IMG/VR virus record: IMGVR_UViG_3300035698_016128
Span: 60,120 to 124,119 of that record
DNA length: 64,000 nt
From: a virus
Reading direction: 5' to 3' (one strand)
Shown here piece after piece: positions 6,893 to 35,705 of this stretch; position 1 is the first letter of the stretch; each line of letters starts with the position of its first letter. The position numbers and the translations under genes are program-made. The notes below the pieces were generated by a model. The model searched no databases and was not told where the DNA came from. It saw only the letters and a program-made list of their open reading frames with translations.

Positions 6893-7198
6893 GGGCAGTA
6901 CAACAAGTTGTGTTTTGGTAGATCGTATACAACTTATTGTACAGAGTTACAAAACTCGGGGACGTAGGAAAATGGGGACCCCCGACACGTGGTTACGTTT
7001 TTGTAACATATGCGTATATATTTGTAACAAGTTTTCGGCAGTATTCGCACGCGGTTTTCGCATGCAAGAATTGCAATACGAAATATGTACCCACGTGCGA
7101 AAAACGTAATACGAAACCGTACCAGTACGAAAACGTAACAACATGACAGAAACGTAATCACATTACGAAAGCGTAACAACGTGACGAAAACGTAACAA

Positions 7199-7282
7199 GG
7201 CAGGCAGGGTGACAGCAGGCAGGCAGGGTGACAGCAGGCAGGCAGGGTGACAGCAGGCAGGCAGGGTGACAGCAGGCAGGCA
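7199..7282. repeat. 19-bp perfect tandem repeat x4 plus a partial copy (GGCAGGCAGGGTGACAGCA)
   Basis: Read directly from the sequence. Confidence 0.95.
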
Positions 7283-7314
7283 AAAAAACCCAAGTGACGA
7301 AAAACGGCGTTTCG

Positions 7315-7331
7315 GTGACGTATTACGTCAC
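7315..7331. promoter_or_regulatory. palindrome GTGACGTA-T-TACGTCAC, candidate enhancer/operator
   Basis: Perfect 8-bp arms about 120 bp upstream of the sigma54 promoter at 7449. Confidence 0.5.
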
Positions 7332-7448
7332 TTTCTTGCCTATTTTCAGGGTGCCATATTGACAGAAAAAAAGCTTGAAAAAAAACTTTCGCCTACAAGT
7401 TATTGTATTCATTACATAAAAAAAAACTTTGTACAATTTCTTGTATGT

Positions 7449-7464
7449 TGGCACACGGCATGCA
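7449..7464 (+). promoter_or_regulatory. sigma54 (-24/-12) promoter
   Basis: TGGCACACGGCATGCA, GG-N10-GC; intergenic, upstream of an operon. Confidence 0.7.
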
Positions 7465-7622
7465 ATGCATAGGGTTGATTCGAACACAGCGTCACGCCAG
7501 CCCCAACTAAGTAAATGGCGAAACACAAGGCACCCGAAAGTCAAGGGTGAAAGGCAAGAAGAAAGCCTGCCGAAATAGGAAACCGCCCTTAAGGGTGCCA
7601 CTTAAAATGCGTTTCCAAAAAA

Positions 7623-8188
7623 TTCTAGTTTTTGGCTTTGCAAGCCGTTTCCGTTTTCCTTCAGAAAGGTAGGTGCCATATGGCGAAAGCCAAAAAGCGC
7701 TTCCTGTCAATGAAGGAAATGATGTATTTTCATTTCCTTGCTATTGCAACGGCAGGGGAAAGCACCCTGAAAGCTGGGGCGCTTCTGAAGGCCTATCACG
7801 GGGGGAAAGAAACTTCCCGTGAGGTTGGCAATGTGACCGGCGAATTGTTCGCACCTGCTATCATGCTTCGGCACCTTGAAAGCTTCGGCACAGTTTCAAG
7901 CGCAGAAGCGAATGACGGCACAATCATTCGCCTGTTTGACGGCTTCGGCAAAGAAAGCTTCCGGGTTTTCTTTTCCAAGCGGGGAAAATGGGCGGGCCGC
8001 TATGGTGTTTCTGGCGCAGTGAAAAGCGCTATGGAAAACGCCCTGCCTGATTGTTCCTTTGACTGGGAACAGCAGGGCACAAAAAATTACTTCTTCTCAG
8101 GGAACAATGAAGCGCTTCTGCGCTTCGCACCCTGACAGGCAGTAATCAACCGGGAAACGGAAACGGCTTGCAAAACCCAAAACTAGAA
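7623..8188. repeat. 34-bp inverted repeat pair (7623-7656 / 8155-8188) bracketing a gene
   Basis: TTCTAGTTTTTGGCTTTGCAAGCCGTTTCCGTTT vs AAACGGAAACGGCTTGCAAAACCCAAAACTAGAA; 2 mismatches. Confidence 0.9.
7680..8135 (+). CDS. early protein of unknown family, paralog A
   Basis: RBS AAAGGTAGG; clear paralog of 9934-10440 (AYHGGK, NDGT, SKRGKW, FGVSG/YGVSG, KNY.FSGN). Confidence 0.85.
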   Translation: MAKAKKRFLSMKEMMYFHFLAIATAGESTLKAGALLKAYHGGKETSREVGNVTGELFAPAIMLRHLESFGTVSSAEANDGTIIRLFDGFGKESFRVFFSKRGKWAGRYGVSGAVKSAMENALPDCSFDWEQQGTKNYFFSGNNEALLRFAP

Positions 8189-8204
8189 CAAGAAAGGGGA
8201 AACC

Positions 8205-8291
8205 ATGGAAATTTTTCTTTTTGGCTGTTTTTGGTTTAGCCTGTTTTGCAGTTTCGTCATTCTTTGCATCATGCTCAGCAACAAGTGGTAG
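8205..8291 (+). CDS. 28-aa hydrophobic micropeptide
   Basis: AGGGGAAACC-ATG; MEIFLFGCFWFSLFCSFVILCIMLSNKW. Confidence 0.6.
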   Translation: MEIFLFGCFWFSLFCSFVILCIMLSNKW

Positions 8292-8303
8292 TAGGGGGAA
8301 ACC

Positions 8304-8426
8304 ATGTTAGAAAGCTTGCACCTTCAGTTTTTCACATTGTTCGTTGATGCTGAAGCGCTTCTGTTTTGGAAAAGGGCGTTTCAGGCTTCGGAAAGCATAA
8401 CCGGGGAAAACTGGTTTGTTTTCTGA
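8304..8426 (+). CDS. 40-aa micropeptide
   Basis: AGGGGGAAACC-ATG; MLESLHLQFFTLFVDAEALLFWKRAFQASESITGENWFVF. Confidence 0.6.
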   Translation: MLESLHLQFFTLFVDAEALLFWKRAFQASESITGENWFVF

Positions 8427-8481
8427 GAAAACCGGGGGGAAGGAAACTTCCCCCCCTACAATTTCTTGTAAAGGGGAAACC

Positions 8482-8592
8482 ATGATTTTAGGCTTCTACT
8501 TGATTGCCAACAGGCCGGTTTTCTTGATGCTCACAAACGTGGGGGAAGTTGATCAACTGTTCCAGAAAACAATATGGCTTCAGTTTGTTTGA
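8482..8592 (+). CDS. 36-aa micropeptide
   Basis: AGGGGAAACC-ATG; MILGFYLIANRPVFLMLTNVGEVDQLFQKTIWLQFV. Confidence 0.6.
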   Translation: MILGFYLIANRPVFLMLTNVGEVDQLFQKTIWLQFV

Positions 8593-8641
8593 AGCCGTCA
8601 ACCGGGGGGAAGGAAACTTCCCCCCCCAGAAAGGGGAAAAA

Positions 8642-8851
8642 ATGGAATACGAACACCCAAAAATGAGGAACAAGTTTTTTAAGTTTCTTGGTGACAGCGT
8701 GCTTGAACCACTTTTCTACAAGCTTGGCTTGTGGTACGGCTGTGATGACTGTGATGACTGCGTGAACCACTGGGTTTACAAGGTTTCCGGTTGCAAGGTG
8801 TGCACGCAAAGGAAGTGTGGCAAAATTCTTGACGCAGTGATTTGGAAGTAG
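8642..8851 (+). CDS. small Cys-rich (Zn-binding) protein
   Basis: AAAGGGG RBS; CDDCDDC...CKVC...C. Confidence 0.7.
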   Translation: MEYEHPKMRNKFFKFLGDSVLEPLFYKLGLWYGCDDCDDCVNHWVYKVSGCKVCTQRKCGKILDAVIWK

Positions 8852-8915
8852 GTCAACCGGGGGGAAGGAAACTTCCCCCCAAGCTTTTACAACTTCTTGC
8901 AGAAAGGAAACTGAT

Positions 8916-9155
8916 ATGACACTTGGCAAGGCAAAAAAGCCGAACGGGAAAATGTGTGCAAGGGTAGTTTCGAACGGCTTGGGTGTTGAAATAGAAGTTG
9001 GCTTGCAGAAGGCAGAAAGTGACACACTCATGGCAGTTGGCACCATTCGCCCCAAGTACAAGAATGAAGAAGCGGGCGCGTTTTTCATGACCATGCTGAA
9101 AGAATACGCTGAGGCGCACGGCATTGAATTTGATGTACAGCAATGGGAAGAATAG
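8916..9155 (+). CDS. hypothetical protein
   Basis: AAAGGA RBS; 79 aa. Confidence 0.7.
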   Translation: MTLGKAKKPNGKMCARVVSNGLGVEIEVGLQKAESDTLMAVGTIRPKYKNEEAGAFFMTMLKEYAEAHGIEFDVQQWEE

Positions 9156-9204
9156 TCAACCGTCAACCGGGGGGAAGGAAACTTCCCCCCAGAAAGGGGA
9201 AAGT

Positions 9205-9342
9205 ATGAGAAAGCCTTTCAGCGCAGTACACATTTGTAACAGGTGCAAGCGCAAAGTAGTAATCATCAAACGGCACAAAGCGCTTCCGCTTCCTTACTGC
9301 TACATGTGTGGCAAGTGTTTCAAGAAGGAATACGGCACGTGA
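9205..9342 (+). CDS. small Zn-ribbon protein
   Basis: AAAGGGG RBS; CNRC...CYMC. Confidence 0.65.
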   Translation: MRKPFSAVHICNRCKRKVVIIKRHKALPLPYCYMCGKCFKKEYGT

Positions 9343-9432
9343 ACGGCTTTGAAGGGGGAAGGCGGGTGCAAGCCTGCTTTCCCCTTTTAACACGCTCAAA
9401 CAGGCGCACAGGCGCACGCACGTGGAAGGAAC

Positions 9433-9475
9433 GGGGAAGGGGAAGCCAAGCGCTTTCCTTTCCCCCCTTTTTTTT
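9433..9475 (+). terminator. Rho-independent terminator closing the island operon
   Basis: G-rich/C-rich stem followed by T8. Confidence 0.75.
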
Positions 9476-9933
9476 GTGCCAAGCAGGGCGTGCGTGACCG
9501 CCATACGACCCCGATATCTGTTTAAGCGCCGGTGGATCCTTTGATTTGTGGATCACTACGTGACGACCCCTCGTAGGTTAAGCGCTGGTGGATCCTTTGA
9601 AGTACCAAAGCACTCTCAATCAATCGCTGAGGAATAGACCTATACCTGTGCCTATACGTAGACGTGGAAGAACCGGAAGGGTCGGGAAATATAAGCGAGT
9701 AGGAGGCGAGCGAGTTGATCGTACTCCCCACAGAGTCGAACCCCTTCGCCTACCCGATATCCCTGGAACCCTATCGGTTACGAAAAGAGTTACTAACCCC
9801 CGAGCAGGGAGAAGACCTCCACCCCTCCCCGGTCCACGAGCGGTGGATCCTTTGGCCTTTCCAAAAGGAACCCCCTATCCAACCATAAGCCGGAGTAGGG
9901 GGTTCGTACTACACGATATTCGGTACTACCGGA

Positions 9934-10440
9934 CTACGCGCCTAAGTAGCGCATGAGAGCTGCGGTATTCCCGGAGAAGTAGTAGTTCTTACTTTCGGAC
10001 TGACGTACCCAACCGAACTCATCGTTGGTATTGACCGCTTCAATCTGCGTGCGTGCCTTACCCGACACACCGAACTGCCCCGACCATTTGCCCCTTTTCG
10101 ACAGGAAGAACCGGAATGCTTCGGACCCGCAGTTATCAAAGACGCGAACCACCGTACCATCGTTGCATTCCGCTTCCGTGAACCTGAGATCAGCAGCGCT
10201 CATGACCGACGCCACAATGGCGCTTCCGAGGAGTTTGCCAGTAGGACCGTCAACTGCCCTTTCGGTATCCTTCCCACCGTGGTACGCGGAGTTGAACATT
10301 CTGGCGGTCACATCCTCCGGGGTCATTTCCGGGATGACCGGCGCTTCGGGTTCAACGATGGGTTCCACCGGGGCGATGATGACTTCTTCCGCCTTCGGGG
10401 ATACTGCCTTCTTCCGCCTGATCGTTTTCTTGGTTCCCAT
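9934..10440 (-). CDS. early protein of unknown family, paralog B
   Basis: AAAGGAG RBS before MGTKK; paralog of 7680-8135. Confidence 0.85.
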   Translation of the reverse strand: MGTKKTIRRKKAVSPKAEEVIIAPVEPIVEPEAPVIPEMTPEDVTARMFNSAYHGGKDTERAVDGPTGKLLGSAIVASVMSAADLRFTEAECNDGTVVRVFDNCGSEAFRFFLSKRGKWSGQFGVSGKARTQIEAVNTNDEFGWVRQSESKNYYFSGNTAALMRYLGA

Positions 10441-10503
10441 TTTGAATCTCCTTTCAGAAGGGTTTTGAGTCCCACCACACCACGTGGTGGTACCCGTATA
10501 TAC

Positions 10504-10519
10504 TGCAAGTCGCGTGCCT
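10504..10519 (-). promoter_or_regulatory. sigma54 promoter
   Basis: AGGCACGCGACTTGCA on the minus strand. Confidence 0.75.
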
Positions 10520-10644
10520 AACAAGGGCATCGGAAATAAAAAAAAAAGGTGGTCGTTTCAGGTACTTACAACTCCGCCCAAAACCGTCGTTCAACGAGTG
10601 GGTAAAATAGTGCCGTTTTTGGGCTCTTTGGTGACAATTTGCGC

Positions 10645-10782
10645 CGGAGTACCAAGAGTTACGATATCGTACTCGTATAGTTACAAGAGTGTAACTGGTT
10701 ACATTATCGTACTCGGCAGTTACAGGAGCGTAACAGGATATCCCAGTTACAAAAACGTAACTAGAGTTACATAATCGTAACA
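10645..10782. repeat. dense cluster of GTTAC/GTAAC pentamers
   Basis: About 10 copies in about 135 bp; a similar cluster lies at 6990-7196. Confidence 0.7.
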
Positions 10783-10907
10783 GGATGTCCCCCGAGGCAG
10801 GTTGCTCCTGGTGGATCCTTTGGATATCGGGACGACGAAGATATCCCCAAGGTGGGAATATAGCTGTGGATCAGTTAAGATCTACCGACTCACACAATCA
10901 TCTTATC

Positions 10908-11132
10908 TTATTTGACGGCCTTCAAGCCGGTTCTTCTCTTCTCCTTGTATTCAATCACCAGCTCGCGTTCAACATCCTCCATCACATGACGCATACGCTC
11001 GGCGGCGCGAGTCAACACTTTGTCGACCTCATAGGCTACAGAGCGATCGCCGTGCACGAAGGCTTTCTCGGAAGCCACATACTCCAGGTCGTGGCCCAAC
11101 TGCTTAACGAGCGCGTTAATGAAAGCTTTCAT
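10908..11132 (-). CDS. hypothetical protein
   Basis: AAGGAG RBS. Confidence 0.6.
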   Translation of the reverse strand: MKAFINALVKQLGHDLEYVASEKAFVHGDRSVAYEVDKVLTRAAERMRHVMEDVERELVIEYKEKRRTGLKAVK

Positions 11133-11299
11133 CGTATCTCCTTCCTACAGGCTCAGCCAACGATGCATCAGGTTAAGATGCAGTACGCCGAAGAACGACA
11201 CTTCGCTTGCCATGTTAAGAGTTGCGGGCGGAAGAGTCTGCCCATCATAGAAGTTCCCAAGGGATAACAAATCGTACATGTGAAGGTAGAACATAGGAT

Positions 11300-11581
11300 T
11301 TAGTTCCTTCCCCTAAGGATGTTTCTGATTTCCTCACGATTCTCAATGCCAAGAGTTTCATCACTCAACAGCTGGATGCGCAGTTCCTTCAGCGACACCC
11401 ACAGCGCTTCGAGAACGTCAGGCTCAACGATTGACCTGTACCCCAGAGGCTCATCACCAACTTCGTCGATCAGCGGGGCCAAGACAGTTTGCAGTGACTC
11501 AGCGAGTTGACCAACCAGCCGATACTTGTCAAGCTTGTTGAGCGAGTTGATGTGAGGAAGATCAATTTTCAGCTTTTTCAT
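11300..11581 (-). CDS. hypothetical protein
   Basis: GGGAGG RBS. Confidence 0.65.
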   Translation of the reverse strand: MKKLKIDLPHINSLNKLDKYRLVGQLAESLQTVLAPLIDEVGDEPLGYRSIVEPDVLEALWVSLKELRIQLLSDETLGIENREEIRNILRGRN

Positions 11582-11593
11582 TACGACTCCTCC

Positions 11594-11782
11594 CTACTGG
11601 GTTACCAGCGTCATGCCGACGTTGTCACATTCCATGCAAAAGAGGTTGCATGCATCAGCGATAGGAATGTCATACGATACAAGGTGAACCTCACCGCAGA
11701 CATTACACTTGAACCGACGCGCACCCTTCCTCAGCAGATAACCAAGCAACTTAGACATGATTCCCCCTACTGGCCGATGCAA
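11594..11782 (-). CDS. small Zn-ribbon protein
   Basis: CNVC...CMEC. Confidence 0.55.
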   Translation of the reverse strand: MHRPVGGIMSKLLGYLLRKGARRFKCNVCGEVHLVSYDIPIADACNLFCMECDNVGMTLVTQ

Positions 11783-11982
11783 ACGTTAAGATTGACGTAG
11801 CCCGCTTCCCGCAGATTGATCAGGGCCGTGTTCAACGACCCATCAGTGCGATAGTCACGTGCCTTCACAGCCGATGCAGCCCACGATGTGGTGATTTCCG
11901 ATAAGCCTGTTCGCCTGACTGACCAGACGAACCCGTGTAAAGGATGCTGAATGGTTCTGCGATACATGCGCTTCTTTCCCAT
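11767..11982 (-). CDS. hypothetical protein
   Basis: AAGGA RBS; first gene after the sigma54 promoter at 12040. Confidence 0.6.
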   Translation of the reverse strand: MGKKRMYRRTIQHPLHGFVWSVRRTGLSEITTSWAASAVKARDYRTDGSLNTALINLREAGYVNLNVCIGQ

Positions 11983-12039
11983 GGCGATTCCTTTCCTTTC
12001 TGGTTGACGATAGTTGCCTTTGCCTTCACCCTATATATA

Positions 12040-12055
12040 TGCAAGTCGCATGCCT
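12040..12055 (-). promoter_or_regulatory. sigma54 promoter
   Basis: AGGCATGCGACTTGCA. Confidence 0.75.
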
Positions 12056-12318
12056 AGAAATAGGCGTCGTACGACATCGTATGGACATCGCTAGACAACG
12101 AGTTGGAAAACAATTACTATCCATGGGCAATAATTGTCACTCATGTGACTCTTTACGCATATCGGTCATTAATCGCATATATATAAGGATATCCACACGA
12201 TGATCTACATAAGAGTAGAGTATCTGTATATAAGGGCGTCTTCGAGTATAAAAGTGCAAGTATCTGTATAAAGAGTGGGAGTTGGCAAACAATGAAGTGA
12301 TGTCCTTTAAGAGCGTTT

Positions 12319-12362
12319 ATATACGAGTTATAGAGTTAAGATATACGAGTTATAGAGTTAAG
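12319..12362. repeat. 22-bp tandem repeat x2 (ATATACGAGTTATAGAGTTAAG); also TAGAGTT x3 at 12937-12957
   Basis: Read directly from the sequence. Confidence 0.85.
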
Positions 12363-12618
12363 AGAAGGGAGTTATACAACATTTGGTAACGATCTCAGTT
12401 TCTTGTAAAACTCACGATCTATATATAATATCTATGATATTAGCTTGGATAAAAGCATCGCCCATATAACATCCCCCTGAGAGTAAACAAGTAAGGAGCT
12501 TATCCATACATCGTAAGGAGAACGATATCCCCCAGTCAGAATATAGCTGTGGATCAGTTGATAACAAGCTCTCTATAATAATATATATATAAGAGAGTCT
12601 AAATGTATCTTACCGTAA

Positions 12619-12822
12619 CTACTTAGGCAGATACGCCTTACAGTCGTTGTGCTTATTACGATCAAGGAAGGTTCTTGTCTGTATCCATACCCTTTCCTCC
12701 CTGACCGGGGTGCGTACCAGCTCCCAGTAACCGCAGTGCTTATCGAGCACACACTCCTGATGTAACCCCCTGAAGAGGGTTCTGAACCTACTACACTCTG
12801 AACAAAAGACCTTATCAGGCAT
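12619..12822 (-). CDS. Cys-rich hypothetical protein
   Basis: CSEC...C..HC...C. Confidence 0.55.
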   Translation of the reverse strand: MPDKVFCSECSRFRTLFRGLHQECVLDKHCGYWELVRTPVREERVWIQTRTFLDRNKHNDCKAYLPK

Positions 12823-12956
12823 AGTGTATCCCCTTCTACTAGCGTTAATACATCTCCCCCTATATGGCTACTTCCAACACCGACGGAAAAGGAAGGGATG
12901 GGATATTATTATATATATAGTATATAGAGGGACGAGTAGAGTTTAGAGTTTAGAGT

Positions 12957-13553
12957 TTACATATCGAATGGGAAAGGCGACCCCTTACCCTTACTCTTAC
13001 TCTCCATCTTCGGGGTAGCCTTCTTCCTTCTCGCCTTCTTCGCCAGCGGCCTCGGGGGGGTAGTAGCGATATATTCCTTCTTCTTCGGCTTCGGGGGCGG
13101 AGTAACGATATATGCTAGCTCTACCGCTACGTCCTCGAGAGTAAGAAGAATCTCTATATCGCTCTCGCTGATAAGGAAGATATTACCGTCGAGCGTTCTT
13201 ATAATAACCTCCCGCTCGGTACCGCCAAGAAGAAACGGCGTTTCGACTTCGAACATCTGGTTCGTATATTCCTCGGGGAAGTAATTCGGTAACCCTCCCA
13301 TAAGGCTCCACTTGATAGTCGTAACTCGGGGAAGGTTAAACCCCGCGTCGTTACGTATACATCCCTTTAACATACCGTAGGTCTTACGAGCGTTATGCAA
13401 ATCCATAACTTCTCCTCTTTCTGTGAAAGGTGTACCGAATCTATCGTCCTTACTTAACTCCGCGATAAGGTTCTTTCTTTCTCTACCTCGGAAGACCGGG
13501 TTAGTATCGCCCTCCTTTAATTGATTTATGAACCTAGAGCTTGCCCCTCTCAC
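12957..13553 (-). CDS. hypothetical protein with Pro/Lys-rich tail
   Basis: 198 aa; strongly TG/CA-depleted DNA. Confidence 0.65.
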   Translation of the reverse strand: MRGASSRFINQLKEGDTNPVFRGRERKNLIAELSKDDRFGTPFTERGEVMDLHNARKTYGMLKGCIRNDAGFNLPRVTTIKWSLMGGLPNYFPEEYTNQMFEVETPFLLGGTEREVIIRTLDGNIFLISESDIEILLTLEDVAVELAYIVTPPPKPKKKEYIATTPPRPLAKKARRKKATPKMESKSKGKGSPFPFDM

Positions 13554-13867
13554 ACCGCACCTCCTTCCAGCGGCATCTCGGTAAGACTCGCCAGTACCCG
13601 TTCCTTGGCGTTCGGGAACTCCATGGCGTAAGCCGGATTGGTAGTACCCAGTTCATAGATCGAGCCTGAGAAGGTGACGACCATACCATCACGCTTACCG
13701 ATGATCTTGGAAGAGCGTACTTCAAGACCGTTAAGGTTAGCACGTGGGTGATCAACGGGGACACCGAGAAGATGTGAGGAAATGAGTTCGGGGGCCATAT
13801 ACGGACTCGTCTGCCCGACTATGATTGCCCAGTTGTTGATCGTAATCGGTTTAACTTTATCTGCCAT
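13550..13867 (-). CDS. hypothetical phage protein
   Basis: GGAGG RBS before MADKVK. Confidence 0.65.
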   Translation of the reverse strand: MADKVKPITINNWAIIVGQTSPYMAPELISSHLLGVPVDHPRANLNGLEVRSSKIIGKRDGMVVTFSGSIYELGTTNPAYAMEFPNAKERVLASLTEMPLEGGAV

Positions 13868-13880
13868 TACGCACCTCCTT

Positions 13881-14051
13881 CTAGACTTTGACCAGCCCGA
13901 GCCGACCCGGCTCAACCATTGTCATCTTGTTGAGTTCAGCCATTGCCTCTTCCAAAGAAGTAAAGACACGAGCCGCCTCAATATGTTCGACCCAGCGACG
14001 AATACCGTCACGAGTCTCAAAGTACCACAGGGTACCGACCGGCGATGACAT
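13881..14051 (-). CDS. hypothetical protein
   Basis: Likely start MSSPVG. Confidence 0.45.
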   Translation of the reverse strand: MSSPVGTLWYFETRDGIRRWVEHIEAARVFTSLEEAMAELNKMTMVEPGRLGLVKV

Positions 14052-14257
14052 ACTAATGTGATGCTCCACCTCACACCTCCTTAGAAAGGACAATCGCCCT
14101 TACAGGGCTGATCATCACAGTCCTTGTCTTCGTTCTCGTAATCGTACGGTTCAAGCCCACAACCTTCGCGAGCCCGATTACATTCAGCCATTGCCTCTGT
14201 TTCCTGACCAGCGATGAATGTCTCCCACCGCATACCTCCCATACTGCACCTCCCTTC

Positions 14258-14503
14258 TTACGAGCGGTTATCGGAACGACTCAAGTTACGGCTTGCGTAA
14301 AGGTTATCCATAAGCTGATCGCAAACATCCATCGGCGCGGACTTGTACAATTCGGAAACCCGCTGGCTGAGGATGCTTGTGTACTCCGCATCTATACCGT
14401 GATGCTTGATGCAGACACAGCCACGCTTGACGATAATGTAGTGCTGGCGCTCGCTGACCTTCCACTCTGCCTTGCACACGAAACAAACGACAGGTTTACC
14501 CAT
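14258..14503 (-). CDS. hypothetical protein
   Basis: AAGGAG RBS; CFVC. Confidence 0.55.
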   Translation of the reverse strand: MGKPVVCFVCKAEWKVSERQHYIIVKRGCVCIKHHGIDAEYTSILSQRVSELYKSAPMDVCDQLMDNLYASRNLSRSDNRS

Positions 14504-14678
14504 CTTTAATCTCCTTCTTGGCCTTGTACCACTCGTTGTATTCCTCCCGTTGAGGACACCAGCGCATGTGGGGGTTGCTTTCAGGTCGCCCGTTCATAGT
14601 CCAAGCATACCCTCCGCAAGTACAGTAATGCTTAAAGCTCTTTAATGCCTCCGCCTCTGCCCTTGTCACCCTAGTCAT
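14496..14678 (-). CDS. small Zn-binding protein
   Basis: HYCTCG...H...C. Confidence 0.55.
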   Translation of the reverse strand: MTRVTRAEAEALKSFKHYCTCGGYAWTMNGRPESNPHMRWCPQREEYNEWYKAKKEIKDG

Positions 14679-14883
14679 CCTCCACTGTGCTGACCTTGAT
14701 CTGGTTAACAGCCTTCATGTTGGTCTGAAGGTTCTTGATCACATCCCTATGGTGCTCGAAGACCAGATTCTTGGCGGCTCCAAGAGTCTTCTGTGCGTTG
14801 TGATACTCCGGGTTACCTTCCTTAACCCTGAAGATCCAACTACATGAGCCATCAACGAGGGCGAGATACCTTGCTACTGCCAT
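14671..14883 (-). CDS. hypothetical protein
   Basis: GGAGG RBS before MAVARY. Confidence 0.55.
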   Translation of the reverse strand: MAVARYLALVDGSCSWIFRVKEGNPEYHNAQKTLGAAKNLVFEHHRDVIKNLQTNMKAVNQIKVSTVEDD

Positions 14884-15254
14884 CACTTCACCTCCTTGGC
14901 CAATCGCAGAAGAGCAGTTTAACATAGGAGGACATGATGTACACCGACTCAGGTATCCACGTTACACCATCAGCGCAGAGTACAAGAAAGTATGGTGCGA
15001 CGTACAATCCCTTGACGATCACGCCCCCATTGTCCTCATAGTAATGAGTTGGAGTCAACATTCCCTTCTCCTTATCTTACTTCTTGTGCGGTTGCAAGAC
15101 TGTACTCACTGAAGTAGAGGATGAAGCACCCATGTTTGGTGTTCATATCTTCCAGGATGTCATCCGTAACTTCCGTCTGTCCAACGTTGAAGTCATAACA
15201 GCAGGAGTTCAGCCACCAATCGTAGAATGTAAGCCAGAACATAATTGCCTCCGT

Positions 15255-15635
15255 CTAAAGTAGTTTTCCACAAAGAGCCATTAACCGCTGAGCAATATCG
15301 AGATGTTCGGCTTGCTGTGCCTCTGTGAACGGAGTGCCATTGATTTCAGCCAACCGAATAATCTCACTGGCGGAACCAAGAAATGATTTCTCCCAAAAGG
15401 CCATTTCTTCTTTGATCGGTACAGGCTCGTCTGCCTGTTTGACCATAGCCCTGATCGCATCTTTAGTAGGCATGGTATAGAATGGAGCACCCAAGTTGAT
15501 ACACTCCCCATCGCTGTTCTCAACATCATAGTAGTCGATGATACCTTCAGGTGTCTCCGAGTCCCAACACCCATAGACGTAATACGTCATATTGTCAATG
15601 AAATAGACAGTGGTTATCTCGCTTCCCGTTTTCAT
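15255..15635 (-). CDS. hypothetical protein
   Basis: AAAGGAG RBS before MKTGSE; follows the sigma54 promoter at 15676. Confidence 0.65.
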   Translation of the reverse strand: MKTGSEITTVYFIDNMTYYVYGCWDSETPEGIIDYYDVENSDGECINLGAPFYTMPTKDAIRAMVKQADEPVPIKEEMAFWEKSFLGSASEIIRLAEINGTPFTEAQQAEHLDIAQRLMALCGKLL

Positions 15636-15675
15636 TTTCCTATCTCCTTTTCTGGTTGGTGTTACCCTTATTAGT

Positions 15676-15691
15676 TGCAAGTCGTATGCCA
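15676..15691 (-). promoter_or_regulatory. sigma54 promoter
   Basis: TGGCATACGACTTGCA. Confidence 0.8.
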
Positions 15692-15786
15692 AGCAAAAAC
15701 CCGTCTATAGACTATGCGATAGGTGTCTGCTTCTCGGTCCATAGGTAATTGTTTTCTTCTTTTGGGTAATCCCTTACCCACTCGTT

Positions 15787-15954
15787 TTACCATACGACAA
15801 CATAGCCTTCCCTATCGGCTATCTCCACCAATGTATCCCAGTTATCTTCGACCCACTTGGTGTGCTTATCGCACGAGTCCTTTTCAAACTTCCTGATGCG
15901 CTCTGCAACACGCCCACCTGCCTCATCCATATCTATTACATTTGACTCGTCCAT
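15787..15954 (-). CDS. 55-aa acidic hypothetical protein
   Basis: AAAGGAG RBS; MDESNVIDMDEAGG; follows the promoter at 15996. Confidence 0.6.
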   Translation of the reverse strand: MDESNVIDMDEAGGRVAERIRKFEKDSCDKHTKWVEDNWDTLVEIADREGYVVVW

Positions 15955-15995
15955 AATGTGGCTCTCCTTTCAAGTGTTGGTTCACCATTATATGA

Positions 15996-16011
15996 TGCAA
16001 GTCGTATGCCA
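15996..16011 (-). promoter_or_regulatory. sigma54 promoter
   Basis: TGGCATACGACTTGCA, identical to the site at 15676. Confidence 0.8.
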
Positions 16012-16360
16012 ACACTTGGCGACGGTCTTAGATATATATGAGTAATCCACGGAGCTCTATGGTGACGAAATACGGCACCCGATGACGCAAATTGTCACCG
16101 GGGCCGTCAGACAGTCTAAGGTAGGATGTTATGTAAGAGCCCTGACTCTACGCCTTCTTGACCTTGCCGGTTCCCGGGACAGAGGCCGCCGCACGAGCAC
16201 GCTTCATGCCACGCGGAGCATTGGGGTTCTTCTGTCCGGTGTTGCGGTTCTTCGAGCAGTTGCTCCGTGCGCCACACGCATCGTAACACGCCTTAACCCT
16301 GAATCCTGTACAAGCCATCTCATCTTCTCCTTCGTACCTTCTTGGGTTTAATCCGGTTGG

Positions 16361-16720
16361 CTACAGCGCTTTGTCATCCACCTCCAACGAAGGGTGCTTG
16401 CCTTTGGCCGACCGCAACGTGAAGTTGAACTCGCTTGCCATGATACCGACCTGCTTCGCCGTGAGGGTGAAGATTCTTCCGTCATCCAACGTGCCACGAA
16501 TGGTCTCGACAGTCTTGGCATTGTGAACAACGAAGATGTTGACGATTTTGCCACCGCCAACAACTTCCGGCAGAGGCGGAGCGGGTTCGGGTACCTTCTC
16601 AACGAGTATGCCGGTCCACTGCTTGCCACACTCAGGGCAAGTATGGACCGCCGAAATCTCACCACCACAGCGGTAGCAAGTCTGCTCGTCGGCCTTCTTG
16701 TGGCAGTATGGACATTCCAT
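16361..16720 (-). CDS. double Zn-ribbon protein
   Basis: CPYC, CYRC, CPEC; GGAGG RBS. Confidence 0.7.
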   Translation of the reverse strand: MECPYCHKKADEQTCYRCGGEISAVHTCPECGKQWTGILVEKVPEPAPPLPEVVGGGKIVNIFVVHNAKTVETIRGTLDDGRIFTLTAKQVGIMASEFNFTLRSAKGKHPSLEVDDKAL

Positions 16721-16784
16721 ACGCTTTCCTCCTCATGTTGTGCTACGTTCACGATTTGTAACCCTGCCTTCAGCAGTTAGTATA

Positions 16785-16800
16785 TGCGAATCGCATGCCA
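16785..16800 (-). promoter_or_regulatory. sigma54 promoter
   Basis: TGGCATGCGATTCGCA. Confidence 0.7.
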
Positions 16801-17295
16801 AGCTAAATAGACTACGTAGACACGTCTTTGTATACCAAGGGATATCGGTACGATAAATTATATAGGAACCTCCTTACCCAATATGTGAAACTCTTTTCCC
16901 ACTCGTTCGCCGACCAATAGATATCGTACCATATATATCTTTATACAAGCAAGATCCCAATACGATATCCCCCAGTCAGGTTTATACTGTGGATCAGTTA
17001 ATACCTAACGATAAAGAAAGATAATCTAATTAGATAACGATATCCCCAGGTCAGTTTATTGCTGTGGATTATTAGATATCGCTTGATAGAATAAAAAAGG
17101 AGACTTCAACCGCCACAGGGTCATAATAAGAGTCAGAAAGGATAACACCCTCTTACTATGAAGCGAAAACGTGTCGGCTAAAGTCCCCTATACAACTCAC
17201 ATGCACCGGCGACGCGCTAGAACTTTGCATAAAGTCCCGGCAGCATGAGGATGCTCACCTATGAACGAAGCCACCCACCTCCTTGATTGTTTATC

Positions 17296-17532
17296 CTACA
17301 ACATCCACCCCTTGGGGGTCAAGTTCTTCTGAAGGACAACCTCATATGATACCCTGTTGATGAACAAGGACAGAACAGTCCACCTGGGCCTTGATTGATA
17401 CGCCACCGACACCCCATGCTTGAAGTCACGGTGGATTGTAACCTGCTTCCTGTTGCTGGTCAGGTGGACAGTGATATGATTCCTACCGCTCGAACCCAAG
17501 CGGTATCTTCTTATATGCAAATTCAATTCCAT
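17296..17532 (-). CDS. hypothetical protein
   Basis: AAGGAG RBS; follows the promoter at 17565. Confidence 0.6.
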   Translation of the reverse strand: MELNLHIRRYRLGSSGRNHITVHLTSNRKQVTIHRDFKHGVSVAYQSRPRWTVLSLFINRVSYEVVLQKNLTPKGWML

Positions 17533-17564
17533 CTCCTTTTCGCTGTGCTGTTACAGGTTAGTAC

Positions 17565-17580
17565 TGCAAACGGTATGCCA
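17565..17580 (-). promoter_or_regulatory. sigma54 promoter
   Basis: TGGCATACCGTTTGCA. Confidence 0.8.
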
Positions 17581-17968
17581 ACCTAACAAAGTCGCACCCG
17601 ACCCTATATATATATCGTATTACATCCATAGACATCGTTTATCGCACCCTTTTGCTCAGTTATATGTACTCTAGGAAAACTTTTACCCACCTCTATACCA
17701 TCGTAGTTGCATCTACCTAGTCTATTCAGGTACTTACGCCACTTAACGAGTGGGTAAAGAGTTTCACATAATAAGTAATACCTTACCCAATACGACATCG
17801 CAATAGTATCTTTCAACACCACTTAGAGTATTTACCTATGCTAACGACTCACCTTTCAACACCCTTTTTAATCTTTTAATACAATTTATTGTCTAAAAAT
17901 ACATATTCTTGTATCCAACTAATCTTTTTTACACTCTACAAGTCTTTGTAATTGTCTTTCCTTAACGA

Positions 17969-17984
17969 TGGCACATGTTTTGCA
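17969..17984 (+). promoter_or_regulatory. sigma54 promoter (divergent partner of 17565)
   Basis: TGGCACATGTTTTGCA. Confidence 0.85.
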
Positions 17985-18040
17985 CCTACTACCTTATAAC
18001 AACACACACGTACAAGGCGAGTTCAGAAAGGAAAGATGAT

Positions 18041-18352
18041 ATGCCTGAGAAAGATTTGGTAGTTGACCTTGTTGTCGTATACCACATAAACTCTGTGTTC
18101 AATGAGGACGGAGAAGAAGGGTTATCGAGGGTAGCTGAATGGATTGGCAAAACCAAGCTTAACCCGAAGACAATGTTCAGCATCTCATCCAGCATGTTCA
18201 GCAAGCACACAGCTCAGCTCTCCATACGGGGTACAATCAAAGAGTCTAAGTTGCAACGCTTCACCGATATAATTCTCAATGCTCGGTGCTTCGGCACTAC
18301 CACTGACGCTCGTTGGCGGTATGCCAACACATCCGAATGGAATGACCTGTAA
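18041..18352 (+). CDS. hypothetical protein
   Basis: AAAGGA RBS before MPEKDL. Confidence 0.6.
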   Translation: MPEKDLVVDLVVVYHINSVFNEDGEEGLSRVAEWIGKTKLNPKTMFSISSSMFSKHTAQLSIRGTIKESKLQRFTDIILNARCFGTTTDARWRYANTSEWNDL

Positions 18353-18362
18353 AGGAGCCGAT

Positions 18363-18554
18363 ATGCCAAAGCTTGAGTTCAATCTTGATGAGGTAGGCAC
18401 AATCATATCGTTGGTGAGCAGGAATCTGTATGGCATTGACGATAGTAATGTCCGTGAGAAGCAACGGAGTGAAGATATTCTTCGCAAGATAAGCAAAGTA
18501 ATCAGCAAACCCATAAAGAAAGGATGTGAACCATGCCAATCATCACCGAAGTAA
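18363..18554 (+). CDS. hypothetical protein
   Basis: AAGGAG RBS before MPKLEF. Confidence 0.55.
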   Translation: MPKLEFNLDEVGTIISLVSRNLYGIDDSNVREKQRSEDILRKISKVISKPIKKGCEPCQSSPK

Positions 18555-18814
18555 CCGACGCAATCATGAAGATGAGCATTGAAGATCTCATGGCTGTGCG
18601 CAAATGCGTGACGCACAGACACGAAGCTCTCTCGAACGAGAAACGTTATTCCTTCCGAAGCGGTACACGTGTCGAATGGGTTGGCCCGAAGTCCGGTTAC
18701 AACAAAGGCACCATCAAGAGGCGCAACCCCAAGACCGCTACCATCGACGCTGACGGAAACGGCGAATGGCGTGTCCCCTACCACATGCTCACCGCTATCG
18801 GCGCAGAGGCGTAA
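18533..18814 (+). CDS. small SH3-like beta protein
   Basis: FRSGTRVEW...GTIKRRNPKTATI...WRVPY. Confidence 0.6.
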   Translation: MPIITEVTDAIMKMSIEDLMAVRKCVTHRHEALSNEKRYSFRSGTRVEWVGPKSGYNKGTIKRRNPKTATIDADGNGEWRVPYHMLTAIGAEA

Positions 18815-18820
18815 TCATGG

Positions 18821-19297
18821 GTGACGGATAGCAAGGAAATTCATGTGAAAAAATGGATGCGCAAGGGCATCAACGCCCTACAAGCAAGCTCTTGCCGTGT
18901 ATGGGAATTCGACATTGGTGAGGTCCCCATAAAGCGGTACGCTACACCGGACTCGTTCACTACGAAGGAAGCACGGCTAGATTTGTGGATGGGCAACATG
19001 ATGTGGCAACTCAAAGATCACCACGGCACGAAGATCAACGGAGAACAAGCACGACAGATCATGTTTGAGTATATGTCGTCAGAATTTTACGAGAAAGTTA
19101 ATGCCAAGTTCCATCGTAAGAAGGTGGTACCCAAGGAGAAACCGAGGCTGACCTCTAAGGATGTTGGCTGGCTTGCGGAGACAGCACCACCTCCACCCGA
19201 AGATAAAACCACACCACTACGTAGACCAGTACATAAACCAAATCGCAAACCTGTTCGTAAGCCTACAAGAGTACCAATGAGGAAGGCCATCGAATGA
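18821..19297 (+). CDS. hypothetical protein with Pro/Lys/Arg tail
   Basis: 158 aa. Confidence 0.6.
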   Translation: MTDSKEIHVKKWMRKGINALQASSCRVWEFDIGEVPIKRYATPDSFTTKEARLDLWMGNMMWQLKDHHGTKINGEQARQIMFEYMSSEFYEKVNAKFHRKKVVPKEKPRLTSKDVGWLAETAPPPPEDKTTPLRRPVHKPNRKPVRKPTRVPMRKAIE

Positions 19298-19402
19298 CGA
19301 GTGAGAAAACTTTTACTATCTACTGGAAACAATGTACCGCTTATGGTATGCAGGTTGCCCATCTAACGGGCCTTAGACGCCATCTAAGGCGTCTGAACGT
19401 AT

Positions 19403-19418
19403 TGGCATGGGCATTGCA
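19403..19418 (+). promoter_or_regulatory. sigma54 promoter
   Basis: TGGCATGGGCATTGCA. Confidence 0.8.
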
Positions 19419-19458
19419 CTAAATACTAATAAAAAGGGCGCACACAGGGGGAAACGAT

Positions 19459-19659
19459 ATGTTTTGGGTTAATTTTTACGACTGGTTCCTTATCTCATTC
19501 GGCACAGAAGTTTACGGTGTCGGTAATGACACCACTCTTTACTTCCTTGACAGCATCGATGAAGAATGTCTCGGTGAATTTGCCGACCTGTATATGACAT
19601 ACACCGGATATAGCGCTGAAGAATGTGTAGACGAATTCATTGGAGTGCAAAATGGCTAA
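19459..19659 (+). CDS. hypothetical acidic protein
   Basis: AGGGGG RBS. Confidence 0.55.
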   Translation: MFWVNFYDWFLISFGTEVYGVGNDTTLYFLDSIDEECLGEFADLYMTYTGYSAEECVDEFIGVQNG

Positions 19660-20380
19660 GGGAAGCGACAGGGTATTTCTTCGTGCCGAAGCACTTGATA
19701 TCTTCGATGAAGTGCATGGCGCATTAACCGCAGACGGCATGGTCGTTAAGGCTACGGCTTGTGGTTCGATCAGGCGTGGCAAGATGATGGTCAACGACCT
19801 TGATGTGGTTGTGGTATCGTGCTATGATAATGCCACACCCATCTGGGAGACGATAGCCACAAACCTGTGGGAACCTACCGAACGGCTTACCTGTGGCCCA
19901 GTCGAATTCAAGTTCAAATACAAGGGACTTCAAATTGATCTGAGAAATTTCCTTCCCGAACAAGAAGGAGCCGGACTACTGTTCAGTACAGGCAATGCCA
20001 TGTTCAACATCTCAATGCGCAGTAGGGCTAAGGTGGTCGGCGACAAGAGGGGCGAAACCTTCAAGCTTAACAGGTACGGCGTCCAATTAATCAAAGGTGG
20101 CATTGACGAGAACGTCACCTTTGGCTTCAGCGAGTCAGGTATATTCGGCTTCCTCGGTATGCCATTCGTTGAACCTGCCGACAGAAGCTTGGCTGAATAC
20201 GAAATGCACAGAGCCGACTCACACTCCATACCAATTGAAAACAGCAAAGGAACTGGAGTCTACAATGTGGTGCTGTCTGGGGGCAAGCTCTCCTGTCCGT
20301 GTAAAGGCTTCACATTCCGAGGTAAGTGCCGTCATGTAACCGAGGCACGTGCAATGGTCGATAACATACCCGAAGGGTGA
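19652..20380 (+). CDS. compact family X DNA polymerase with C-terminal SWIM Zn finger
   Basis: CGSIRRGK...NDLDVVV, QIDL, LLFSTGNAMFNISMRSRA, LNRYG, SESGIFGFLGMPFVEP; SCPCKGF...CRH. Confidence 0.8.
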   Translation: MAKGSDRVFLRAEALDIFDEVHGALTADGMVVKATACGSIRRGKMMVNDLDVVVVSCYDNATPIWETIATNLWEPTERLTCGPVEFKFKYKGLQIDLRNFLPEQEGAGLLFSTGNAMFNISMRSRAKVVGDKRGETFKLNRYGVQLIKGGIDENVTFGFSESGIFGFLGMPFVEPADRSLAEYEMHRADSHSIPIENSKGTGVYNVVLSGGKLSCPCKGFTFRGKCRHVTEARAMVDNIPEG

Positions 20381-20383
20381 GAC

Positions 20384-20824
20384 ATGGACGATAGGAAAGA
20401 AAAGATATTAGATAGAATGAAGAAGCAGGGCAAGCCACAAGATGATACGCTTGTGTCGAAGGAAGACCTTGTGATGTGGTACTCAACAGCAATCGAACAT
20501 GTGCTACGGTCTAACCAAGATATGTTGGCAAGCATAGCAGAAAGACTTGCCAAGCAGTACCCTAATATCTTCTGCGAACTGGCTGAGTATGACGATGAGG
20601 AAGAGAGCGAGAACAACGAAGTATTTAATCTAACTGATGCGGTCAGCCAAGAAGTTGCATCTCATCTTAGACGTGGCGAAAGTGAAAATGTAATAACTAT
20701 CCTCATGAGGTTAGGTCGCACGAGAGATGAAGCAATAAAATTTATGGAGAAATATACAGGCAGAATGTTAAGAGGATATGTTGGCCCAAAGAAAACAAAG
20801 GAAGATGAAAACATTCCATTTTAA
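20384..20824 (+). CDS. hypothetical protein
   Basis: 146 aa. Confidence 0.6.
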   Translation: MDDRKEKILDRMKKQGKPQDDTLVSKEDLVMWYSTAIEHVLRSNQDMLASIAERLAKQYPNIFCELAEYDDEEESENNEVFNLTDAVSQEVASHLRRGESENVITILMRLGRTRDEAIKFMEKYTGRMLRGYVGPKKTKEDENIPF

Positions 20825-20833
20825 GGAGATGAT

Positions 20834-21079
20834 ATGCCTACCAAGGCGAAGCAAAGAGATTACATAGAAGATGAGGCAGTGCCATGTATAGTGATCGGGT
20901 ATGACTTCGCATGCCGAGAGGAGAGAACCTTTCCCGAATGGTACGACAGCACTCAGCCCGACATGCTTGATGCCTTCTTCTTCAACACAATCTTGATCGA
21001 CCCAAATGATAACTCGAAGTATTACATCGTACAGTCAATTGACATGGAGTTTAAAACCACCAACGAACAAGGAGAATGA
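20834..21079 (+). CDS. hypothetical protein
   Basis: AAGGAG RBS. Confidence 0.55.
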   Translation: MPTKAKQRDYIEDEAVPCIVIGYDFACREERTFPEWYDSTQPDMLDAFFFNTILIDPNDNSKYYIVQSIDMEFKTTNEQGE

Positions 21080-21082
21080 ATC

Positions 21083-21355
21083 ATGGGACAAGGTTATGAT
21101 CCGAAGCAGAACAAAGTGTTGAAGGAAGTCGAAGCAGGTGAAAGCCTCTTCATCACCGTGAACTCCTACAAGGATGGCGAACCCAAGATCCAGATCGCCC
21201 GCACCTACCTCAAGAAGGATGAGACACGCGGGTACGGCAAAACAGGTCGGCTCACCGTCACGGAATACGAAGACCTGTGCGGGGCCATGGAGGAAGTGCT
21301 TGACGGGATCGAACGCACCCCGGCTCCCAAGAAAAAGAAGAAGAAGGGCAAGTGA
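21083..21355 (+). CDS. PC4-like ssDNA-binding / transcription-coactivator-fold protein
   Basis: YDP...ITVNSYKDGEPKIQIAR...KTGRLT pattern; poly-Lys tail. Confidence 0.55.
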   Translation: MGQGYDPKQNKVLKEVEAGESLFITVNSYKDGEPKIQIARTYLKKDETRGYGKTGRLTVTEYEDLCGAMEEVLDGIERTPAPKKKKKKGK

Positions 21356-21460
21356 TGTACTCGGTGCTAGATAGGGAAAAATGCTTCCACTCTATGGTAA
21401 GTAATTGCCCTATCAAAGCGCCGAAGATGTACAATACAGCATCTATAGACGGTTTCCGAG

Positions 21461-21476
21461 TGGCATGCTGTTTGCA
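21461..21476 (+). promoter_or_regulatory. sigma54 promoter
   Basis: TGGCATGCTGTTTGCA. Confidence 0.85.
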
Positions 21477-21517: not shown

Positions 21518-21871
21518 ATGAATTGTGATAGAAGCGGGGCCACTCCGGTAACGAACCCGGCGCTCCTAGGAATATGGGAACAAATCCAGAATGAAGATGA
21601 ACAAAGAACCAAGGAAGAGAAAACGGAAACTGACATACTCAAACCAATCTTCATGGAATACATCTTAGCAATACAAATCAGCGAAGATCGCACATGTGTT
21701 TCGCTTGCCTTTGCTACATTAATCGGGGCCATGCGCAGTCTAATCGCACCACCATTACGTAATAGGGTAGCGAGCGTCGTAACAAGCGATAGAGCATATC
21801 AGGCTATGGTAGCCACACTCGACAACACCCAATGCAAGGAGAACAGAGATGGCGAGCAAGAAGAAGGGTAA
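21518..21871 (+). CDS. hypothetical protein
   Basis: AAAGGA RBS. Confidence 0.55.
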   Translation: MNCDRSGATPVTNPALLGIWEQIQNEDEQRTKEEKTETDILKPIFMEYILAIQISEDRTCVSLAFATLIGAMRSLIAPPLRNRVASVVTSDRAYQAMVATLDNTQCKENRDGEQEEG

Positions 21872-22493
21872 GAAGAACTCAGTCTCCGGTACCAAGAAGG
21901 AGCTGAAGAAGAAGCTGTCGAAGCCCCAGGACATCAGCCTCAAGAAGAGCGCACCCGAAACGAAGCCGGAGAAGGCTCCGAAGGGCGAGCCGGGAACCAA
22001 GCGGATTCCACTCAGGAAGGTGAAGGCCAGCGATACGGCTTCCTTCCGCGACCGTGCCTACAACGGACCCAACGTGGTCAGGCGCACCGTTGGCTCCACC
22101 CTCGAAGGCAAGGCCCGCGAGAAGTTGGAAAACACGGTGTTCATGGAGGAACTGCGCAATCGTTTCGCCGACGCAAAGCGGTGCATCATGACCTGTGCCG
22201 ACAATGCGAACGGCCTGATCTGGCGCTTCTTCCTCGTGGGAACTGACAAGAACATCCGGTTCTGCACCGACGCCACCTTCTCCAAGGGCATTGGCATGGG
22301 CAACCCGACGTGGACCGGCAAGAAGAAGACCACTGGTGGCTTCGGCTGTGTCGACTACGTTTCGGGCGACGGCGTGATTCCCCAGAGGAACAAGCCGGAG
22401 AGCTACCGTTACATCCCGTCAACGGAAGCGAACCTCGAAGGCGTGACGGAATTCATGGAGGCAATGGGGTTCGAGCGCATTGTGGCCGACTGA
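21849..22493 (+). CDS. Lys-rich early protein, possible remote member of the paralog A/B family
   Basis: AYNG...R.V...GK, NGLIWRFF, GKKKTTGGFG resemble A/B motifs; GC3-rich codon usage. Confidence 0.7.
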   Translation: MASKKKGKKNSVSGTKKELKKKLSKPQDISLKKSAPETKPEKAPKGEPGTKRIPLRKVKASDTASFRDRAYNGPNVVRRTVGSTLEGKAREKLENTVFMEELRNRFADAKRCIMTCADNANGLIWRFFLVGTDKNIRFCTDATFSKGIGMGNPTWTGKKKTTGGFGCVDYVSGDGVIPQRNKPESYRYIPSTEANLEGVTEFMEAMGFERIVAD

Positions 22494-35063: not shown

Positions 35064-35705
35064 ATGAAAAAGTATGAAGACTTCATTGCCTTAGCAACAC
35101 CGATAATAAGACAAGAGGCAAGGCGGTTCAGCAAACGAATTCAAAGTCATGATGTTGAAGATCTTGAGCAAGAAATAAAGTTTAAGATTTGGCGAAGTTT
35201 TGACACCATTGATTTGGATAAATATCCCCCAAAGGCTGTTGCGAGAAATATCGCTGTGCAGACGTGCTTGCGAATATACGGACGTAAGCCGAAGGAAATT
35301 GGCAGTATCAAATTGGAAGAGAACTTTTGGGGGACAAGTGGTTTTGCCAGCATCGAAGTAAGACACTTATCAGATAAACCACATGCGGATGCCGTCATAC
35401 GGGAAGAGGACTTTACCTGCACGGCAGGTACAGCGGAAGTCGAAGTCTGTGACCTACTGGCTACGCTGTCACCACAACTAAGCGATGTAGCGCATACCGT
35501 TCTACGCATCCGGCTTGATCCCCCGCAGGGTTTGATTTCAAAGGCATGCCGTGGTATGCTTGAAACTAAGAAGACCAGCAGGGACAGGTCTACCTTTCGC
35601 ATAACAAATAAAATGTTCAGCGACTACCTTGGCCTAACAAGGTACCGCTATGCTGTTGCTCTTGAAGAGATAAGAGAAAAGCTTGGGGCGCTAGGAGAAT
35701 TGTGA
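35064..35705 (+). CDS. phage sigma70-family-like factor
   Basis: Region-2-like HDVEDLEQEIKFKIWR; C-terminal HTH FSDYLGLTRY. Confidence 0.65.
   Translation: MKKYEDFIALATPIIRQEARRFSKRIQSHDVEDLEQEIKFKIWRSFDTIDLDKYPPKAVARNIAVQTCLRIYGRKPKEIGSIKLEENFWGTSGFASIEVRHLSDKPHADAVIREEDFTCTAGTAEVEVCDLLATLSPQLSDVAHTVLRIRLDPPQGLISKACRGMLETKKTSRDRSTFRITNKMFSDYLGLTRYRYAVALEEIREKLGALGEL

Follow-up and report, generated by a model that had tools for sequence, protein, structure and literature searches.

An array of putative sigma-54 promoters between the virion and replication genes of an uncultured large tailed phage

The right half (positions 60120 to 124119; 64,000 nucleotides [nt], hereafter the window) of a 124,119-bp virus record in IMG/VR, IMGVR_UViG_3300035698_016128, carries ten sequences of the sigma-54 (RpoN) or -24/-12 type, packed into a 14-kb block between the virion genes and the replication genes of a large tailed phage. 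Judging from their sequence and arrangement, we think it reasonably likely that the ten are genuine promoters for host RpoN. Consensus, spacing, position, orientation, predicted start point, a core conserved in a related lineage, and enhancer-like upstream repeats all point to this reading, and they support a first-pass annotation of the same DNA, made from the letters only, that had described the block as an early region driven by sigma-54 promoters. These phages would thereby probably run their pre-late program on the host sigma-54 route. In textbook phage programs, transcription begins with host sigma-70 or with a phage polymerase. Sigma-54 has hardly figured in published work on phages; alone among the bacterial routes, it gives no transcription at all before an ATPase fires it. 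Coordinates below are those of the window unless a contig is named.

The ten sites and the genes behind them

The first-pass annotation had listed ten matches to TGGCAY-N5-TTGCA, and all ten are present where it placed them, on the strands it gave. Six are exact (15676, 15996, and 17565 on the minus strand; 17969, 19403, and 21461 on the plus strand) and four carry a single mismatch (7449 on the plus strand; 10504, 12040, and 16785 on the minus strand), with GG and GC invariant and exactly 10 nt apart throughout. The two sites said to share one 16-mer, 15676 and 15996, do so. As a set, the sites conform to the extended sigma-54 consensus YTGGCACGr-N3-TTGCW, with a T before TGGCA in eight of them; the bacterial consensus drawn from 186 promoters of 47 species, as quoted in PMC2725144, is mrNrYTGGCACG-N4-TTGCWNNw. 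Information content is concentrated at positions -1 to 15 (tTGGCAYRCG and TTGCA), at a TA at positions 21 to 22, and at a GGT at positions 25 to 27.

Allowing up to one mismatch, the window has 14 matches; shuffled sequence gives 2.7 ± 1.7, and none of 100 shuffles reached 14. Two such matches inside the block were excluded from the set: 17516 (minus strand) has no GG, and 19820 (minus strand) lies antisense within a gene. Across the 124-kb contig there are seven exact matches, where composition predicts 0.1, and six of the seven fall between 7.4 and 21.5 kb of the window. All seven have the spacer of 5 nt; the other spacers between 0 and 11 nt gave 0 or 1 match in the contig, and the reversed control pattern gave no match anywhere in it. 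The seventh exact site (TGGCACGCTTTTTGCA) lies outside the window, on the minus strand at contig position 30195-30210, inside a late-region gene and with no ribosome-binding site (RBS) after it; it is either a chance match or an internal promoter.

The placement of the sites relative to genes is equally regular. As had been claimed at first pass, each of the ten is intergenic and aimed at the adjacent gene, without exception co-oriented with it. A Shine-Dalgarno sequence and a start codon follow 29 to 55 nt past the predicted +1 at nine of the ten, 7449 being the exception. Counting the C of GC as -12 puts +1 at position 26, so the GG(G)T that is conserved there in both phage lineages (see below) is the expected sigma-54 start point, and transcription is predicted to begin on it, about 12 nt past the GC.

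The six leftward sites, all on the minus strand, each head a cassette with between one and about twelve small genes. The first of them, 17565-17580, is exact, has the best score of all (21.8 bits), and precedes gene 17296-17526. Next to it, 16785-16800 (TGGCATGCGATTCGCA) stands ahead of 16361-16720, whose product has a weak zinc-ribbon match, and 15996-16011 stands ahead of 15787-15954. Its identical twin, the exact site 15676-15691 (TGGCATACGACTTGCA), precedes 15255-15635 and about 12 small genes in a row; 12040-12055 (AGGCATGCGACTTGCA) precedes 11767-11982 and four more small genes; and 10504-10519 (AGGCACGCGACTTGCA) precedes 9934-10440 (168 aa). The three rightward sites, all exact and on the plus strand, lie before the first genes of the replication arm: 17969-17984 ahead of 18041-18352 and the plus-strand block, 19403-19418 ahead of 19459-19659 and a nucleotidyltransferase gene (19652-20380), and 21461-21476 ahead of 21518-21871 and a conserved gene for a 214-aa protein. 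About 400 bp separate 17565 from 17969, and the two make up a divergent pair. The remaining site, 7449-7464 on the plus strand (TGGCACACGGCATGCA), heads an island of plus-strand micro-genes with hairpins between them, in which the first RBS-bearing gene is 7722-8135. It has TAGGGT at the predicted +1 and a leader of roughly 160 to 250 nt, and it is the weakest of the ten, with cATGCA at -12 and the lowest matrix score (12.2 bits).

A related lineage and the upstream elements

A portal profile built from homologues led to 19 IMG/VR loci, and three contigs (G001 to G003) represent one related lineage in which the portal is 48% identical. Each of the three has seven or eight exact sites clustered in 12 to 18 kb of a syntenic block, and the reversed control pattern has 0 or 1 match per strand in them. 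G003 carries nine sites (eight exact), all of them between genes and facing the one that follows, whose RBS and ATG come 30 to 74 nt past the predicted +1; GGGT stands at the same position as in the window, and a divergent promoter pair lies at the syntenic place. Over the 19 sites of both lineages, the start codon lies 29 to 63 nt past the predicted +1 in 18; at least 90% retain GGCA and TGCA and at least 60% the T preceding each block, with a spacer that is lineage-specific. The first-pass annotation had proposed a matrix scan against a shuffled background, and the outcome is in its favor: a matrix built only from the nine sites of the relative places all ten window sites among the 17 best in the genome, nine of them among the ten best, and shuffled genomes gave 0 to 5 matches at the threshold. 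Only about five proteins from the first 30 kb of the window are matched in the 30-kb stretch of the relative; few early proteins are shared, and the putative promoters have therefore been conserved while their cargo turned over.

Farther afield, the signal fades. More distant relatives, with portals 42% identical, have no clear site cluster. A 34%-GC relative at that portal identity (locus L033, G004 15507-15626) has two identical tandem TGGCATACTTTGTGCA sites, 104 bp apart, in an AT-rich gap, and the pair may represent a modified form of this promoter type. Scanning IMG/VR for the exact 17-mer promoter gave seven single matches, a number expected by chance, on unrelated contigs of low GC, and single-protein IMG/VR scans with the nucleotidyltransferase, a 126-aa early protein, and the portal found nothing. 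Apart from this phage and the G001 to G003 lineage, the metagenome scan returned a single contig, an unrelated low-GC one without sites.

Upstream of the sites recurs a repeat that we call E1 (AACGAGTGGGTAA; 15 to 26 nt, written AACGAGTGGGTAAAG(AGTTTCACATA)), with 10 matches at up to three mismatches where 1.5 are expected, six of them in the block. Five sites have a copy, a candidate enhancer, between -67 and -132, in one orientation or the other: 10593-10607 on the plus strand (AACGAGTGGGTAAAA; -113 to -99 of site 10504), 12097-12111 on the plus strand (a degenerate copy with three mismatches; -81 to -67 of 12040), 15772-15786 on the minus strand (-120 to -106 of 15676, adjoining a GGGTAA/TTACCC inverted repeat), 16893-16907 on the minus strand (the long form with GAGTTTCACATA; -132 to -118 of 16785), and a variant at 19296-19310 (-132 to -118 of 19403). 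Another long form, 17745-17770 on the plus strand, sits in the divergent intergenic region common to 17565 and 17969, at -204/-190 of 17565. In their distance and their indifference to orientation, the E1 copies look like the enhancer sites of sigma-54 activators. No integration host factor (IHF) consensus was found between E1 and the promoters, and an E1 scan of IMG/VR gave no match. The relative has an upstream element of its own, based on CTCTTT, with 17 occurrences where 3.2 are expected and a presence at eight of nine sites. A CTCTTT-type element common to both lineages was considered and dropped, as it is significant only in the relative and not enriched in the window.

Under the sigma-54 reading, host RNA polymerase carrying host sigma-54 would dock on the sites and form a closed complex, which an ATP-driven activator, working through the repeated upstream elements about 70 to 130 nt from the start, would open for initiation at GG(G)T, some 12 nt beyond the GC. 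The six leftward sites would drive cassettes of about 30 small orphan genes resembling a host-takeover set. The three rightward sites would drive the start of the replication and nucleotide block, including a phage sigma-70-family factor for later genes, and 7449 would serve the small plus-strand island that it heads.

Activators, competing readers, and precedents

The first pass had seen no GAFTGA-type activator in the window, and the absence extends to the whole 124-kb contig and to the contigs of the relatives. The Sigma54_activat profile search that it recommended was negative in six frames over the full contig, as were six-frame profile searches of the contig for Sigma54_DBD and Sigma54_CBD. 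Neither Sigma54_activat nor Sigma54_DBD was found in the contigs of five relatives, and a six-frame scan produced no GAFTGA-like motif. The only AAA+ proteins present are a MoxR/CbbQ-type protein and a loader-like protein. The MoxR/CbbQ-type ATPase (AAA_5 plus CbbQ_C), which has no GAFTGA, adjoins an 808-aa CobT/VWA-like protein, and the pair occupies 31448-34953. Because no recognizable phage activator gene is present, the activator would be either a host enhancer-binding protein or an unrecognized phage factor.

One lead for a phage factor is the conserved 214-aa protein (21849-22493, plus strand), which combines a disordered, Lys-rich tail with an alpha/beta domain and whose gene lies near the head of the replication-side operon in both lineages, first after the site in G003 and second in the window. 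Its AlphaFold model is confident (pLDDT about 90 over residues 60 to 210). The best fold matches, at Z 5.0 to 6.6, are Mediator Med17, frataxin, and the C-terminal domain of T4 MotA; they are below the level for fold assignment, so the protein is left without one, and the MotA match (Z 5.0 to 5.6) is too weak to count as evidence. Closer homologues are P0087 (54% identical) and P0088 (50% identical). We treat the protein as a candidate DNA-binding factor, an activator lead and nothing more. A broader proposal, which we put forward only tentatively, is that the whole pre-late program runs on host sigma-54 with no phage AAA+ activator at all, through either non-canonical opening or a host enhancer-binding protein that infection itself triggers. 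The former might involve a phage DNA-binding factor at the lineage-specific sites near -110; in the latter, a sensor of membrane stress or RNA damage might act as the ignition key.

Several considerations weigh against host RpoN as the reader. Neither the 124 kb nor the relatives yielded an activator gene, and the contig is rated only about 75% complete. E1 is absent at four sites, a host rpoN is presumed, and the argument is drawn entirely from sequence. Immediate-early genes would need an activator already active in the cell, or injected. The conserved +1 region, moreover, is unusual for bacterial sigma-54 promoters and more typical of phage-polymerase promoters. That region is where a phage-specific promoter, read by an unrecognized or virion-delivered polymerase or by a divergent sigma-54-like protein, finds footing: about 29 bp are conserved, including the TA..GGGT start region, as in T7-type promoters. 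Its reader would have its gene in the quarter of the genome that the contig lacks, or would have diverged beyond the reach of the profiles used, and the contig does encode 1247-aa and 376-aa proteins that match no family. A search with PF00940 (T7-type RNA polymerase) gave no match, but control genomes gave none either, so it stands without a positive control. We nevertheless judge such a reader unlikely, since 10 to 11 sigma-54 consensus positions at the exact spacing make recognition by sigma-54 far more likely than by an unrelated phage system. It is only the sigma-54 core that is kept between the two lineages while the spacer changes. No RNA polymerase, Sigma54_DBD, or Sigma54_CBD match was obtained in the contig, no Sigma54_DBD match in the relatives, and no polymerase domain in the large proteins of unknown function that were scanned. 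The only sigma factor of the phage is a sigma-70-family protein of the two-domain, ECF-like type; this type reads elements about 17 nt apart, and we therefore assign it to later genes.

The sites could also bind sigma-54 holoenzyme or a phage regulator without being promoters of the adjacent genes, as decoys that sequester host sigma-54 polymerase, as roadblocks, or as operators over unseen promoters. Stable binding of sigma-54 holoenzyme without firing is described in PMC2725144, searches for an activator came up empty, and TKGCA half-sites one helical turn apart could suit a regulator that binds in tandem. We regard this as quite improbable, given that orientation agrees with the downstream gene at all 19 sites of the two lineages, that the RBS follows at a short, fixed distance, that the predicted +1 is conserved, and that the consensus scan revealed no alternative promoter of the sigma-70 type, and no strong site of that type, in these gaps. 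The same searches leave little for ordinary sigma-70-type promoters, with TTGGCA as the -35 element, TAnnnT as the -10 element, and the sigma-54 likeness due to chance. TTGGCA does equal TTGACA at five of six positions, and TAGGGT does lie 16 to 17 nt downstream at sites 7449 and 12040, but TAnnnT occurs at a workable spacing in only two or three of the ten sites, the invariant TTGCA would sit unexplained in the spacer, and sigma-70-type consensus promoters are not enriched (23 in the block versus 20.6 expected; 33 downstream versus 28.2). Chance likeness of this kind strikes us as highly improbable.

Textbook examples of sigma-54 promoters are glnAp2, nifH, and pspA. The sites resemble bacterial sigma-54 promoters in having GG and GC 10 nt apart within TGGCA and TTGC blocks, in lying just upstream of genes, and in having repeats roughly 100 nt upstream, in either orientation, as enhancer sites would be. 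They differ in forming a phage array, ten in 14 kb, that is unusually uniform and has a conserved TA..GGGT start region, in having no cognate activator gene nearby, and in lacking an IHF consensus between repeat and promoter. Such an array had seemed unusual for a phage at first pass, a judgment that stands in the literature searched: no phage with a sigma-54 promoter array turned up in full-text searches, and the only phage precedent found is Pseudomonas phage YuA (Yuavirus), in which a sigma-54-like start site has been mapped by ONT-cappable-seq (PMC10914365). The YuA record (NC_010116) includes three "-24/-12 consensus" fragments, active in a promoter trap and located in the virion-gene region; their best GG-N10-GC match reaches 8 of 11 consensus positions, and that genome has no site of 10 or more of 11. 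Like YuA, which is reported to use host sigma-54 for some of its transcription, the phage described here is a tailed phage in which no RNA polymerase of its own was found; unlike YuA, it has ten near-perfect sites, in a nonstructural block, with upstream repeats and with conservation in a second lineage.

The host-takeover module of Bacillus phage SPO1 and the middle promoters of T4 rely on sigma-70-family recognition, and MotA of T4 is a DNA-binding activator that acts at a fixed upstream box. The many small orphan early genes, the putative strong promoter for each cassette, and the phage sigma factor assigned to later classes recall SPO1 and T4; the -24/-12 promoter type sets the present block apart from both. 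If the sigma-54 reading is right, about 35 genes and the entry to the replication module hang on sigma-54, and a host signal, or a phage activator of a new kind, may gate infection. The phage could shut off sigma-70 transcription without harming its own genes, and rpoN and its activators would become determinants of host range and resistance. The sites, compact, strong, uniform, and accompanied by candidate enhancers, could serve as genetic parts that are tightly off by default.

Genome context, host, and other repeats

The phage is an uncultured large tailed phage with no close cultured relative: a cultured-phage collection held no near-identical phage, and the best relatives of its DnaE-type polymerase are less than 30% identical. 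Its left arm, on the minus strand, carries the virion genes (tape measure, minor tail protein, head protease, and portal), and its right arm, on the plus strand, carries the DnaE-type polymerase, a DnaB-like helicase, a ribonucleotide reductase, and the MoxR/CbbQ-type AAA+ protein with its VWA partner. The promoter block of about 35 small genes lies between the two. Family scans of 19 of these genes gave no convincing match except one nucleotidyltransferase domain, and none of ten small early proteins tested matched PHROG. The nucleotidyltransferase (19652-20380; counterpart L031 11429-12286) is of the polymerase-beta type, and its copies in the two phage lineages share 45% identity; a C-x-C...C-x-H motif at the C-terminal end resembles a SWIM zinc finger. 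A set of 5.8 billion proteins contained no homologue beyond those lineages. The ECF-like sigma factor is encoded in the right arm at 35064-35705 (plus strand). It probably serves later genes and should not read -24/-12 sites; intergenic k-mer searches yielded no late-promoter motif for it, and it was not found in the partial contigs of the relatives.

Clues to the host are few. No tRNA genes were found in the phage, and no prophage relatives. The nearest cellular homologues of the ribonucleotide reductase, about 50% identical, come mostly from Desulfobacterota and archaeal metagenome-assembled genomes, a weak hint at a host in one of these groups. Desulfobacterota are rich in sigma-54 regulators, and to our knowledge actinobacteria and cyanobacteria have no sigma-54. 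The strong use of Shine-Dalgarno sequences and a GC content of 47% would argue, by inference only, against an actinobacterial or cyanobacterial host.

Other repeats are scattered around the block. A 46-nt repeat (ACGATATCCCCCAGTCAG..TATAGCTGTGGATCAGTT) has four copies (10835-10880, 12518-12563, 16958-17003, and 17033-17078), each with a DnaA-box-like TGTGGATCA or TGTGGATTA. Two copies occupy the gap of 543 bp on the left side of the divergent promoters, and the repeats could be a replication origin or the sites of another regulator. Nine or ten TACAA-N4-TTGTA palindromes occupy 6899-8901 and 17880-17950. One ends 3 bp before site 7449, three lie 18 to 90 bp before site 17969, and two others lie between a GAAA-tetraloop hairpin and the next RBS; the palindromes may be operators or small RNA hairpins. 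The noncoding segment 6526-7292, at the border between late genes and early block, contains three different tandem arrays, with units of 10 nt (GAGTG-rich), 21 nt, and 19 nt (AGGCAGGCAGGGTGACAGC), the last in about five copies. A 37-nt inverted repeat, 92% complementary (7623-7659 and 8152-8188), flanks the first island gene, 7722-8135. Within the island, a hairpin (GGGGGGAAGGAAACTTCCCCCC) has four copies in 8434-9190 and a degenerate fifth near 7800; a near-identical RBS (AGAAAGGGGAAACCATG) follows each hairpin, and hairpin and RBS together separate genes of 36 to 79 aa.

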